The translations under genes were made by a program, and so were the position numbers. A DNA stretch of 64,000 nt. It comes from an uncultured Gammaproteobacteria bacterium (lineage in GTDB: Bacteria; Pseudomonadota; Gammaproteobacteria; Xanthomonadales; Rhodanobacteraceae). This document shows, one piece after another, positions 33,925 through 53,574 of the stretch. Position 1 is the stretch's first letter. Each line of letters begins with the position of its first letter. The stretch spans positions 2,598,097-2,662,096 of the forward strand of contig OY969566.1 of assembly GCA_963701115.1 (NCBI GenBank). Direction: 5' to 3'. Below the pieces are notes generated by a model, which had not been told where the DNA came from, did no database searches, and worked only from the letters and a program-made list of their open reading frames with translations.

Positions 33925-34410
33925 ATGCCTAGCCAGCAACGCGAACTCGAATTCCAGTTTCTGGCCGAGCCGACCGATGTCAATTTCGGCGGCAAGATGC
34001 ACGGCGGGGCGGTGTTGCGCTGGATCGACCAGGCCGGCTATGCCTGTGCGGTGGCCTGGAGCGGCAAGTACTGCGTGACCGCAGCTGTCGGCGGCATCGA
34101 ATTTGTTGCTCCGATCCTGATCGGCGACCTTGTTCAGGTTCGCTGCAAACTCGTGCATACCGGAACCTCGAGCATGCAGATCACCGTCGATGTCGTCGCG
34201 CGCGACCTCAAGCGCACCGAGGAGCGGCTGGCGACGCACTGCGTGATGACCTTTGTGGCCTTGGACGCTCCGGATGGCAAGCCAAGCCCAGTGCCGAAGT
34301 GGACACCGCTGACCGGGGAGGATATCGCCCTGGGTCAGTATGCCCTCAAGGTCATGGAGGTCGGGCGCCGGATCAAGGAGGAGGCTGCGGCCTTTCGCCC
34401 AGACTCCTAG
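33925..34410 (+). CDS. Acyl-CoA thioesterase (YciA-like hotdog fold)
   Basis: PTDVNFGGKMHGGAVLRWIDQAG, TGTSSM, MTFVALD. Confidence 0.88.
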   Translation: MPSQQRELEFQFLAEPTDVNFGGKMHGGAVLRWIDQAGYACAVAWSGKYCVTAAVGGIEFVAPILIGDLVQVRCKLVHTGTSSMQITVDVVARDLKRTEERLATHCVMTFVALDAPDGKPSPVPKWTPLTGEDIALGQYALKVMEVGRRIKEEAAAFRPDS

Positions 34411-34499
34411 GATCCAGAAAAGCCGTTCAGGAATGCCGCGGTCGCTCGGGATTGTCGAAAAAAAGTGACTCCATGCCCCCGTCGGCACAACTTTTGCTG

Positions 34500-34535
34500 T
34501 TGACACCCGCGGCACTCTCCGTGAAAATGCGCGGC
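34500..34535 (+). promoter_or_regulatory. Sigma70 stable-RNA-type promoter of the tRNA-tuf operon
   Basis: TTGACA (34500-34505), 17 bp, GAAAAT (34523-34528), GC-rich discriminator gcgcggc; A/T tracts upstream. Confidence 0.7.
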
Positions 34536-34544
34536 TCCGTGTCT

Positions 34545-34700
34545 GGAGGGATACCCAAGCGGCCAACGGGGGCAGATTGTAAATCTGCTTAACCTTCGGT
34601 GGTTCGACTAAGTTCGCTGGGAGCGAACTTGAACGCGACGCGAAAGCGGCGCGGCCCCGGAGGGGCGGAGGGCAGGATAGCCCGACGCAATCCACCTCCC
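34545..34700 (+). pseudogene. Degenerate tRNA-Tyr copy with an 82-nt structured T-loop insertion (RtT-like)
   Basis: First 44 nt match tRNA-Tyr except C32T; variable arm shortened; insert 34608-34689 between TTCGA and ATCC; 3' acceptor strand tcccgga instead of tccctccacca. Confidence 0.85.
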
Positions 34701-34745
34701 GGACAACACGATACGAGGCTGCAGCAACGAAGCATCAAGAATTTC

Positions 34746-34831
34746 GGAGGGATACCCAAGCGGCCAACGGGGGCAGACTGTAAATCTGCTGGCTTACGCC
34801 TTCGGTGGTTCGAATCCACCTCCCTCCACCA
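34746..34831 (+). tRNA. tRNA-Tyr(GUA)
   Basis: Anticodon arm gcaga-ct GTA aa-tctgc, long variable arm, GGTTCGAATCC, ACCA end. Confidence 0.97.
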
Positions 34832-34833
34832 AT

Positions 34834-34912
34834 CAGAATACAGAGGTCAGAGAGCAGAAATCAGAGCGCGGAGAAGTACATCTGTCTTCTGTTGACTGTC
34901 CTCTGCTCTCTG
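34834..34912. repeat. Heptamer-periodic inverted repeat, CAGA variant
   Basis: cagaata cagaggt cagagag cagaaat cagagcg ... acatctg tcttctg ttgactg tcctctg ctctctg, between tRNA-Tyr and tRNA-Gly. Confidence 0.75.
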
Positions 34913-34916
34913 AAAC

Positions 34917-34990
34917 GCGGGAGTAGTTCAATGGTAGAACATCAGTTTTCCAAACTGATTACGAGGGTTCGATTCCCTTCTCCCGCTCCA
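34917..34990 (+). tRNA. tRNA-Gly(UCC)
   Basis: Anticodon arm tcagt-tt TCC aa-actga; GGTTCGATTCC; TCCA end. Confidence 0.96.
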
Positions 34991-35037
34991 AAGATTCAAG
35001 CTGCAACGTAGTGGATCAAAGAGAAAAGGTTTTTGTT

Positions 35038-35214
35038 AATGGGTCAGCATGGATGCTGGTCTGTAGCTGCCGACAGGAAGTCGGCTGAAGTAACGCAAAT
35101 GGGTCGGCAGGATGCCGGTCTTAAGTCGCCGACAGGAAGTCGGCTGAAGTAACGCAAATGGGTCAGCATGGATGCTGGTCTTAGCTTGCCGACAGGAAGT
35201 CGGCTGAAATAACT
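35038..35214 (+). repeat. Three tandem 58-60-nt units, each with two GGA-loop hairpins (candidate CsrA/RsmA-binding RNA)
   Basis: Units start at 35038, 35098 and 35157; hairpins cagca-tgga-tgctg / cggca-gga-tgccg and gccgac-aggaa-gtcggc. Confidence 0.9.
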
Positions 35215-35290
<76 letters not shown>

Positions 35291-35332
35291 AAATTCATTC
35301 ACCCCAGACGATTTTCCGAGAAGAACACTGCC

Positions 35333-36523
35333 ATGGCCAAAGAGAAGTTCGAGCGCAAGAAGCCGCACGTAAACGTCGGCACGATCGGTCACGTTGACCA
35401 CGGCAAGACGACCCTGACGGCGGCGCTGACGAAGCTCGGTGCAGAGCGTTTTGGCGGCGAGTTCAAGGCGTATGACGCGATTGACGCGGCGCCGGAAGAG
35501 AAGGCTCGCGGCATCACGATCTCGACGGCGCACGTGGAATACGAGTCGCCGATGCGCCATTACGCGCATGTTGATTGCCCGGGCCACGCCGACTACGTGA
35601 AGAACATGATCACGGGTGCCGCGCAGATGGACGGCGCGATCCTGGTCTGCTCGGCCGCCGATGGCCCGATGCCGCAGACGCGCGAGCACATCCTGCTGGC
35701 TCGCCAGGTCGGCGTGCCGTACGTGGTGGTGTTCCTGAACAAGGCCGACATGGTCGACGACGCCGAGCTGCTTGAGCTGGTCGAGATGGAAGTGCGTGAG
35801 CTGCTCTCGAAGTACGACTTCCCGGGCGACGACACCCCGATCATCCACGGTTCGGCACTGAAGGCGCTGGAAGGCGACCAGTCCGAGATTGGCGTGCCGT
35901 CGATCATCAAGCTGGTCGATGCCCTGGACAGCTGGATCCCGGAGCCGCTGCGTGACATCGAGAAGGCATTCCTGATGCCGGTCGAGGACGTATTCTCGAT
36001 TTCGGGTCGCGGCACGGTGGTGACCGGGCGCATCGAGCGTGGCATCGTCAAGGTTGGTGACGAAATCGAAATCGTCGGCATCCGTCCGACGGTGAAGACG
36101 ACGGTCACTGGCGTGGAGATGTTCCGCAAGCTGCTCGATCAGGGTCAGGCCGGCGACAATGCAGGTCTGCTGTTGCGCGGCACCAAGCGTGACGACGTCG
36201 AGCGTGGCCAGGTGCTGGCCAAGCCGGGCTCGATCACGCCGCACACGAAGTTTGAAGCGGAAGTTTATGTGCTGAGCAAGGAAGAAGGCGGTCGTCATAC
36301 GCCGTTCTTCAAGGGTTACCGCCCGCAGTTCTATTTCCGCACGACCGATGTGACCGGCGCTTGCGAGCTGCCGGAAGGCGTCGAGATGGTGATGCCGGGC
36401 GACAACGTGAAGATGGTGGTGACGCTTATTGCCCCGATCGCGATGGACGATGGCCTGCGCTTCGCGATCCGCGAAGGTGGCCGTACCGTCGGCGCCGGTG
36501 TGGTTGCCAAGGTTCTTGCGTAA
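35333..36523 (+). CDS. tuf: Elongation factor Tu (copy 1)
   Basis: [26 protein letters not shown]; 396 aa. Confidence 0.99.
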
Positions 36524-36528
36524 GAACT

Positions 36529-36602
36529 GAGATTCGGGATTAGGGATTCGGGATTGGTAAGAGCGGGCTTCCGCTTCGATCGAATATCGAATATCGAATC
36601 TC
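36529..36602. repeat. Heptamer-periodic inverted repeat
   Basis: gagattc gggatta gggattc gggattg ... gaatatc gaatatc gaatctc. Confidence 0.85.
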
Positions 36603-36611
36603 AGAAAAGCC

Positions 36612-36691
36612 GGGATTGCTGAGTCGGAATTAGGAATAGGAAAGAGCGGGAAGCCGCTTCTACTAATCCCGAATCCCGAATCTCGAATCCC
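36612..36691. repeat. Heptamer-periodic inverted repeat (second of a tandem pair)
   Basis: gggattg ctgagtc ggaatta ggaatag ... taatccc gaatccc gaatctc gaatccc. Confidence 0.8.
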
Positions 36692-36705
36692 AAGCTCTAA
36701 AACAT

Positions 36706-36781
<76 letters not shown>

Positions 36782-36828
36782 GTCAATTGAAGGTGCTGGT
36801 GCGCTTCCAGCACACAACGGCAGGACGA

Positions 36829-37218
36829 ATGAACGCAAAGCTAGAACAATCCGAAAGCAACAGCGGCCTGGACATCGTCAAGCTGAGTCTGGCCGTGCTG
36901 CTCATCGTCGGCGGGCTGTTCGGCTTCTACTTCTTTGCCGGGCAGTGGAACACAGCGTTGCGCGTCGTTGCCCTAATAGGCTCCTTTGTCCTGGCGGGGC
37001 TGATTGGTGCGACATCCCACAGTGGCCGAAACCTGCGTGTCTTCATTGCCGAATCGCAGTTCGAGCTGCGCAAGGTGGTCTGGCCGACTCGCGATGAAAC
37101 GGTTCGTACCACGGGGGTGATCATCGTCGTGGTCATCATCATCAGTCTCATCCTGGGCCTGATCGACCTGATTCTGAAATGGGTCGTCATGGACTGGCTC
37201 CTGACGCTCGGGCACTGA
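36829..37218 (+). CDS. secE: Preprotein translocase subunit SecE (3-TM form)
   Basis: [13 protein letters not shown] motif, three hydrophobic segments, located between tRNA-Trp and nusG. Confidence 0.95.
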
Positions 37219-53422: not shown

Positions 53423-53428
53423 GAAGCC

Positions 53429-53509
53429 GGGATTCGTGATTCGGGATTCGGGATTCGTAAAAGCGGCTTTTCGCTCCACACGAATCCCGAATATCGAATC
53501 CCGAATCCC
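53429..53509. repeat. Heptamer-periodic inverted repeat
   Basis: gggattc gtgattc gggattc gggattc ... gaatccc gaatatc gaatccc gaatccc. Confidence 0.9.
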
Positions 53510-53574
53510 AAGCGAAAACAAATGAGCGGCCAGGGGTGTGCGCGCCCCTTGCTCCAACCAGGAAACAGACGGCA

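Follow-up and report, generated by a model that had tools for sequence, protein, structure and literature searches.

Why does the spacer between two transfer RNA (tRNA) genes carry six hairpins that each present GGA in the loop? The spacer in question lies in a window of 64,000 nucleotides (nt), the whole stretch analysed here, from an uncultured Rhodanobacteraceae bacterium (contig OY969566.1, positions 2,598,097 to 2,662,096). The original prediction, made from the letters alone, read the hairpins at window positions 35038-35214 as a sponge for CsrA/RsmA that is released by tRNA processing. We find that the repeated unit, an approximately 58-nt two-hairpin element which we call R1, is a genuine structured RNA module that is present family-wide (Rhodanobacteraceae/Dokdonella) and matches no Rfam family. 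R1 is a new GGA-loop RNA module and one of a family-wide set of GGA-loop hairpin repeats. The array in the spacer is best seen as predicted, repeat-borne CsrA sites in a tRNA precursor and not as a dedicated Gac-controlled sponge gene.

A conserved two-hairpin module

Positions 35038-35213 form one tandem array (Tandem Repeats Finder, period 59, 3.0 copies, 87% matches), which occupies most of the 224-nt spacer between tRNA-Gly(tcc) at 34917-34990 and tRNA-Thr(ggt) at 35215-35290. The array consists of three tandem units of 58-60 nt. Folded singly, each unit gives a hairpin A and a hairpin B at -19 to -20.5 kcal/mol, in agreement with the three two-hairpin units originally described. Hairpin A has a stem of 9-11 base pairs (bp), including three G-U pairs, and a loop of UGGA in units 1 and 3 and of GGA in unit 2. 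Its stem reads CAGCA/UGCUG in units 1 and 3 and CGGCA/UGCCG in unit 2, a two-sided change from A-U to G-C that retains pairing, and hairpin B (gccgac-AGGAA-gucggc) does not differ among the three units; both features had been claimed and both are confirmed by the sequence.

All three units are on the plus strand. Unit 1 (35038-35097) has hairpin A at 35041-35062 and hairpin B at 35069-35085, unit 2 (35098-35156) at 35101-35121 and 35128-35144, and unit 3 (35157-35214), whose tail reaches the tRNA-Thr 5′ end, at 35160-35181 and 35188-35204. The six GGA triplets (35051-35053, 35076-35078, 35110-35112, 35135-35137, 35170-35172 and 35195-35197) are separated alternately by 25 and 34-35 nt, which places six CA(N)GGANG loops within 177 nt. 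Upstream of unit 1, the spacer leader (34991-35037, plus strand) is A/U-rich, has no significant structure (z = 0.13) and ends in GGUUUUUGUU right before the unit. A U-run precedes the first unit in relatives too.

One fold speaks against six local hairpins: in the minimum free energy structure of the 224-nt spacer as a whole, units 1 and 3 pair with each other in place of their local A hairpins. With this cross-pairing and a whole-spacer z of only -2.0, thermodynamics is insufficient by itself, and the whole-spacer fold, which mixes the repeats, was dropped as evidence. We accept the local hairpins because of covariation across relatives.

The comparison covered two samples. The genus sample (Dokdonella) holds 37 genomes, in which the congeners are Dokdonella sp. 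and metagenome-assembled genomes of Rhodanobacteraceae/Lysobacterales; the order sample holds 401 genomes, evenly drawn. By blastn, related spacers are found in 15 of 36 congeners, 14 of them Gly-Thr spacers with one, two or three units. A covariance model built from 19 units scores the three host units at 76.7, 74.7 and 75.0 bits, respectively, and matches 23 of the 37 genus genomes and 38 of the 401 order genomes, 33 of the latter in the same family and from about a dozen genera.

Aligning 81 distinct units gave 91.6% paired cells and compensatory changes in 12 of 15 base pairs, including all six of hairpin B. None of 500 shuffles attained the observed covariation, and slid controls collapse. 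The original prediction had called for aligning the Gly-Thr spacers of relatives, and covariation is indeed found. Many relatives have the unit at this site too, with stems altered in a compensatory way that no shuffle reproduced, so it is more than a chance arrangement. RNAalifold independently returned the same two hairpins, each with a C-G-closed hexaloop A-N-G-G-A-N (C[ANGGAN]G), and no enclosing basal stem in the R1 alignment. Searches with cmscan found no Rfam family at threshold, either for the surrounding region or for the spacer alone.

Conservation is strongest in the loops. The GGA of loop A is present in 81 of 81 units at all three positions and that of loop B in 81, 81 and 80; the flanking C, A and G are kept in 74-81 units, and both loops read C-A-N-G-G-A-N-G. 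Loop A is more precisely A(Y)GGAU and loop B ANGGAR. Variation in the loops coincides exactly with the N positions of the consensus CANGGANG for CsrA/RsmE, as expected from the claim that these are CsrA-consensus loops. Part of the GGA invariance is circular, because the model that collected the units rewards GGA, and this weakens the case for CsrA to that extent.

The alignment also tells the two strands apart. It contains 74 G-U/U-G pairs compared to 13 A-C/C-A pairs, and on the opposite strand unit 1 folds at -17.3 kcal/mol with hairpin A down from 11 to 5 bp. The G-U excess together with the shrinkage of hairpin A suggests that the structure has been selected on the GGA-bearing RNA strand.

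By context, 56 of the 81 units lie in sense orientation in spacers of tRNA/tuf operons (Gly-Thr, tuf-Trp, Trp-secE and tufA-rpsJ), 2 are antisense beside a tRNA and 23 are found elsewhere; loci were taken best hit first, so these proportions are biased to strong copies. The last unit usually stops 0-3 nt short of the 5′ end of tRNA-Thr or tRNA-Trp. Where copies in different species are orthologous, their stems remain specific to the locus (GCGCUC/GAGCGC ahead of a murA-like gene is an example), which argues for vertical inheritance and not for recent movement.

Predicted CsrA sites in a tRNA precursor

The genome has the protein that a CsrA sponge requires, as claimed: csrA is present once, as a 68-amino-acid (aa) open reading frame (ORF) that matches PF02599 at 92.7 bits. 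Its first 50 residues, over the RNA-binding fold, are nearly identical to those of E. coli CsrA, and because of this near-identity the specificity for GGA in hairpin loops is expected to hold. The conservation pattern of R1 is the one that CsrA recognition would predict. Binding of CsrA by the predicted R1 sites is rated likely, and a dedicated sponge function only plausible.

The array lies in the spacer between tRNA genes of one operon, 3′ of a promoter and without an intervening terminator. A strong promoter does lie upstream, as the original prediction supposed: a sigma-70-type site, TTGACA-17 nt-GAAAAT, at 34500-34528 on the plus strand (10/12 consensus matches), followed by a G+C-rich stretch (GCGCGGC). 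It is the sole promoter-like site in 34200-36900 and is where the tRNA-tuf transcript is likely to begin. Between it and tuf, the plus strand showed no terminator-like site. Downstream on the same strand follow tRNA-Tyr(gta) at 34746-34831 (Rfam tRNA, 53.4 bits), tRNA-Gly with CCA encoded (74.6 bits), tRNA-Thr (75.4 bits), tuf at 35333-36523 (elongation factor EF-Tu, 396 aa) and tRNA-Trp at 36706-36781.

In the mechanism that we propose, the array would be co-transcribed with tRNA-Tyr, tRNA-Gly and tRNA-Thr. An RNase E-type cut after tRNA-Gly would set the 5′ end of a spacer RNA, and RNase P would set its 3′ end by cutting before tRNA-Thr, since the last unit stops 1 nt short of the 5′ end of tRNA-Thr. 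The freed RNA would be about 224 nt long with six consensus CsrA sites. Given the site spacing of 25 and 34-35 nt, one CsrA dimer could bridge each unit, that is three dimers at most, and the extent to which the RNA would bind and titrate CsrA would scale with the synthesis of stable RNA. Of the explanations considered, we hold it the most likely that the transcribed spacer does bind CsrA and, once tRNA processing has set it free, can serve as a decoy, although the odds are somewhat below even.

Several observations weigh against it. No promoter-like or terminator-like site flanks the array, and no GacA box (TGTAAGN6CTTACA, up to 2 mismatches) was found in the window. The CsrB/Rsm models of Rfam clan CL00106 gave no match to the spacer above cut-off: RsmW comes closest, at 18.4 bits where 52 are required (E = 0.33-1.8), and this sub-threshold match rests purely on the GGA hairpins. 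The scan with Rfam CsrB, RsmY and RsmZ models for which the original prediction had called thus gave a negative result. The array does resemble CsrB, CsrC, RsmX, RsmY, RsmZ and RsmW in having several CA(N)GGA(N)G-loop hairpins spaced 20-35 nt apart on a short non-coding RNA, in an organism with a canonical CsrA. It differs from them in lacking its own promoter, GacA/UvrY box and terminator, in being embedded in a tRNA precursor and bounded by tRNA genes, and in being an exact two-hairpin module that is a dispersed repeat in relatives.

By-products of tRNA processing are known to act as decoys. In E. coli, the 3′ external transcribed spacer of leuZ and the internal transcribed spacer of metZWV are tRNA-spacer sponges that pair with Hfq-dependent small RNAs such as RyhB and RybB. 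They share with the proposed role of the array that a processing by-product becomes a stable regulatory decoy; unlike it, they do not target a protein and lack repeats of GGA hairpins.

A closer parallel to the logic of the original prediction is offered by E. coli RrA, RrB and RrF, small RNAs co-transcribed with ribosomal RNA that bind CsrA and Hfq and are under growth-rate control (PMC8144298). Like the array they belong to a stable-RNA primary transcript, so that growth-rate-controlled promoters govern their amount, and CsrA binds them in vitro (PMC8144298). Unlike the array they lie between dual terminators at the 3′ ends of rrn operons, bind Hfq and occur as a single copy per operon and not as modular repeats (PMC8144298). 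They have no sequence relation to R1. Their deletion has only modest CsrA phenotypes (PMC8144298), which counts against the decoy reading. A second caution comes from Xanthomonas, where RsmU, a genus-restricted RNA processed from a 3′ untranslated region, sequesters RsmA (PMC7694677). RsmU still binds and functions with all its GGA changed to AAU (PMC7694677), and inference from GGA can therefore mislead.

The TwoAYGGAY RNAs, including their multi-copy form in Pseudomonadota, are also close in design. These two-hairpin RNAs were proposed as CsrA binders on motif grounds (PMC4333381), and in Pseudomonas they are multi-copy, arranged in divergent doublets, associated with repetitive extragenic palindromic (REP) sequences and of unknown function (bioRxiv 10.64898/2026.09.22.753630). 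R1 shares with them two consecutive hairpins with A-Y-G-G-A-Y-type loops, multiple copies in variable number, and doublets or arrays near other repeats. It differs in having no common basal stem, in its loop B (ANGGAR and not AYGGAY), in its length (57 compared to 168 model positions) and in its commonest sampled site, the tRNA operon spacer. The TwoAYGGAY model (RF01731, cut-off 43 bits) found nothing in the spacer at E <= 10. A whole-genome search at E <= 1 was also empty, a weak negative as the control genomes were silent too. By the tests applied, the array is a member of neither CsrB/Rsm nor TwoAYGGAY; if active, it would work like them and like RrA, RrB and RrF.

The same transcript has a further set of GGA-loop hairpins. 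Just 3′ of the promoter, at 34545-34700 on the plus strand, lies a truncated tRNA-Tyr-like copy with inserted hairpins, which gives a weak match of 17 bits to Rfam RtT at 34582-34697. Its GGA-loop hairpins are at 34620 (uaaguucgc-UGGGA-gcgaacuug), 34659 and 34675 (gggc-AGGAUA-gccc), and the copy is similar to the tRNA-Tyr-linked, RtT-like repeats of congeners. In congeners, 2-4 of these repeats of about 156-178 nt stand in tandem in the Tyr-Gly spacer, each closed by a tRNA-Tyr 3′ end and with GGGC-AGGAU-GCCC-type hairpins inside. The array itself gave no match to the Rfam RtT model, whose only match is the one upstream. RtT of the E. coli tyrT operon (RF00391) resembles the arrangement here as a set of tandem repeats in a tRNA operon that gives a non-tRNA RNA, with tRNA-Tyr-linked repeats upstream in our case; unlike RtT, R1 units have no tRNA fragment.

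Repeat-like behaviour and rival explanations

In the host genome, a single contig of 4.28 Mb with 61% G+C, R1 was tested as a high-copy repeat, and this was rejected: only three copies were found, all at a single locus. A plasmid or phage origin was also rejected, as blastn gave no match to plasmid or phage relatives.

The distribution of R1 among relatives counts against a dedicated CsrA decoy. The original prediction had also called for comparing copy number among relatives: the units recur there, and their number is not kept, with 0-3 units at the Gly-Thr site among congeners. Six congeners have unit-free Gly-Thr spacers of 8-67 nt, and in two of them tRNA-Gly is identical to that of the host. 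Fourteen of the 37 genus genomes have no R1 match. The csrA gene is found in 33 of the 37, including those without R1 units, and R1 is therefore dispensable in congeners. A phyletic link between csrA and R1 was considered and is uninformative, csrA being near-universal in the genus. From the promoter to tRNA-Thr, the number of GGA-loop hairpins runs from 1 to 19 among species, so there is no conserved dosage. The tRNA-Tyr-linked RtT-like repeats supply some of these hairpins. Some unit-free species do make up GGA hairpins through them, but the totals follow no rule, and dosage compensation is not supported.

Placement and orientation point the same way. Other genera have 2-9 copies per genome at several loci, with up to 9 dispersed over at least six loci. 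Antisense copies are found in relatives: the rpsG-fusA spacer has three and the atpH-atpA spacer one. In-frame insertions lie within valS and gcvP of other genera. Antisense and intra-ORF units cannot serve as sense GGA RNAs without antisense transcription.

Some of these copies can be described more closely. In G324, three tandem R1 units occupy the rpsG-fusA spacer (L116, 5447-5623) on the strand opposite the str operon, with one unit in the same place in G379; such copies would give UCC-loop hairpins on the mRNA. The insertions in valS (G324, L118, 1559-1617) and gcvP (G030, L080, 976-1037) are in frame and antisense. The one in valS adds about 13 residues to the anticodon-binding domain and is common to a genome of another genus; the same G324 valS has a second, low-complexity insertion of about 45 residues.

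These facts speak for the main rival explanation, that R1 is a REP-, MITE- (miniature inverted-repeat transposable element) or RPE-like (Rickettsia palindromic element) repeat that spreads or has spread as DNA. The tRNA-spacer array would then be an old insertion amplified by slippage, and CsrA titration would be incidental or absent; the hairpins would be generic (RNA processing, 3′-end protection, insulator) or serve their own propagation, and the GGA loops would reflect the propagation machinery. We think this less likely than the CsrA decoy, yet a strong rival. It accounts for the up to 9 dispersed copies per genome in other genera, for both orientations and in-frame insertions, and for presence or absence between close relatives. 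In one genus (G161), near-identical copies form divergent doublets at which contigs are broken. In G033, the strongest blastn match to the spacer, an R1 unit lies between tufA and rpsJ, where the host has a GGGATTC-heptad palindrome. The host is moreover full of other hairpin repeats, including a 48-50-nt GGA class after terminators and REP-like GTAGGAGC arrays. There are precedents: the SMAG elements show that hairpin repeats amplified in tandem are common in the order (PMC2613905), and Pseudomonas TwoAYGGAY is multi-copy, in divergent doublets and linked to REP arrays (bioRxiv 10.64898/2026.09.22.753630).

What this explanation handles less well is selection. The same operon sites are occupied in about a dozen genera with compensatory stems and invariant loops, which indicates long purifying selection and which neutral decay would not yield. 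The original prediction had set itself against a dispersed selfish repeat with unconserved loops: the dispersal is seen in relatives, whereas the loops are invariant, so only half of that description applies. The orientation of 56 sense against 2 antisense units in tRNA/tuf spacers and the G-U excess, a sign of selection on one RNA strand, count against it as well. Nor does it explain the exact overlap of the conserved loop positions with the CsrA consensus, and it has to accommodate a host with three copies at a single locus and no plasmid or phage match. In the loci that we examined, neither terminal inverted repeats nor target duplications came to notice, although no search was aimed at them.

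R1 resembles REP sequences and the bacterial interspersed mosaic elements (BIME) that they form part of, SMAG, and in-frame Rickettsia-type palindromic elements, as a short, intergenic hairpin repeat found in either orientation that is amplified in tandem in places (PMC2613905), differs between relatives and now and then sits in frame inside a gene. It differs from all of these in that its loops, and not its stems, are invariant, in that tRNA/tuf copies are almost always sense, and in its single host locus. A GTAG head and the lack of a GGA loop mark the SMAG consensus GTAGTGCCGGCCGCTGGCCGGCA (PMC2613905), and identity of R1 with SMAG/REP was rejected on these grounds; neither a GTAG head nor an associated transposase was noticed in the R1 alignments, in which no systematic search for them was made.

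A second explanation makes the units cis sites, at which a bound protein (CsrA or other) tunes processing of the flanking tRNAs or the translation and stability of tuf, secE-nusG and neighbouring translation genes, with no sponge acting in trans. It draws on position: units adjoin tRNA 5′ ends at 0-3 nt, in relatives they occupy the spacers tuf-Trp, Trp-secE, tufA-rpsJ and nusG-rplK and a site some 20 nt ahead of a murA-like gene, and in G113 the secE start follows 22 nt after the end of a unit. In the host, however, tRNA-Thr separates the array from tuf and is cut out, no ribosome-binding site overlaps the units, and congeners that share the operon do not keep the sites. We consider a purely cis role quite improbable.

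Finally, the GGA(G) loops might mimic Shine-Dalgarno sequences and bind the 16S anti-Shine-Dalgarno sequence of free 30S subunits, or pair with antisense copies that have UCC loops, and not bind CsrA. This we consider very unlikely: many relatives do have GGGAG or UGGAG in loop B, a second repeat class has GCAGGAGC loops and UCC-loop antisense copies exist in str-operon spacers of relatives, but the host loops AGGAA (B) and (U)GGAU (A) are both poor Shine-Dalgarno matches and the conserved C, A and G beside the loop cores agree better with CsrA.

Long palindromes whose arms are runs of GGGATTC/GAATCCC heptads lie behind both tuf genes (window 36524-36705 and 53425-53510), the one between tuf and tRNA-Trp folding at -81.5 kcal/mol (z = -6.1). 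Since relatives have R1 units where this genome has heptad palindromes, different repeat types replace one another behind tuf.

Other GGA-loop arrays and a possible distributed CsrA sponge

GGA-loop hairpins are not confined to the R1 locus. The host genome has 37 clusters of them with 111 hairpins, compared to 0-17 clusters for eleven control triplets, and this abundance also weakens the sponge reading. At 14 other GGA-array loci cmscan found no Rfam family at threshold, TwoAYGGAY included. Homology between R1 and the other host arrays was examined and could not be established: the R1 model scores at most 21 bits there, so the design is shared while membership of the same family is not demonstrable.

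The most regular of these arrays form a second class, with a unit of about 45-50 nt that combines a GCC-AUGGAU-GGC hairpin with a 9-bp stem with a GCAGGAGC loop. Near-identical tandem arrays of 3-7 copies lie outside the window at C1:1893556-1893852, 3288364-3288543, 165684-165820, 689198-689346, 1071797-1071944, 2048811-2048951 and 2586790-2586922. The three inspected in detail (1893556, 3288364 and 165684) each begin directly 3′ of a same-strand rho-independent terminator; rplS and a phasin-like gene are among the genes that they follow. The second stem covaries between arrays, and the pattern is found in 18 of 37 congeners with up to 30 matches per genome and none in the control.

Further repeats of the host contig differ from both classes. 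Conserved elements of about 200-400 nt with several CAGGGAUG/CACGGAUG-loop hairpins form divergent doublets at C1:491106-491967, 1001816-1002578, 536457-536734, 1173341-1173935 and 1382350-1382991; they recall extended Pseudomonas TwoAYGGAY doublets and have no Rfam match. Distinct GGA-hairpin tandem repeats with units of 51, 59 and 61 nt lie at C1:904616-904772, 2150523-2150683 and 102535-102677, the first inside a predicted ORF and the other two 4-10 nt past the stop codons of a POT-type transporter gene and lpdA. REP-like tandem arrays of 85-91-nt units in up to 17 copies (for example C1:241941-243519, 2176352-2177310 and 3000179-3001167) consist of inverted GTAGGAGCCC...GGGCTCCTAC hairpins and are a separate, abundant family. 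An array of period 71 with about 48 copies and 65% matches (Tandem Repeats Finder) at C1:3046592-3050126 has the pattern expected of a CRISPR array.

A broader version of the CsrA proposal would make R1 part of a distributed sponge. Here, the Rhodanobacteraceae would do without Gac-controlled RsmY/Z-type RNAs, and CsrA would be titrated by sense two-hairpin GGA units in the most heavily transcribed transcripts of the translation apparatus (tRNA-tuf, tuf-Trp-secE-nusG and tufA-rpsJ spacers), which would couple free CsrA to ribosome and tRNA synthesis, i.e. to growth rate. In the host genome the 48-50-nt arrays that follow rplS and other highly expressed genes may belong to such a sponge as well. 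We regard the distributed sponge as rather unlikely. If true, its capacity would evolve through the repeat-like spread of the module.

CsrA/RsmA is a master post-transcriptional regulator. In the Xanthomonadales, the Xanthomonas-confined RsmU is the sole antagonist RNA that we found described (PMC7694677). R1 is a concrete candidate: a compact, strongly covarying module with two canonical CsrA-type loops, conserved across the family, whose level would track stable-RNA synthesis. It also touches on the puzzle of whether multi-copy AYGGAY/GGA-loop repeats, such as Pseudomonas TwoAYGGAY and the arrays described here, are selfish DNA, CsrA decoys or both. If R1 does bind CsrA, interspersed repeats would be linked to global regulation; if it does not, hairpins that match the CsrA consensus perfectly could evidently be maintained for another reason.

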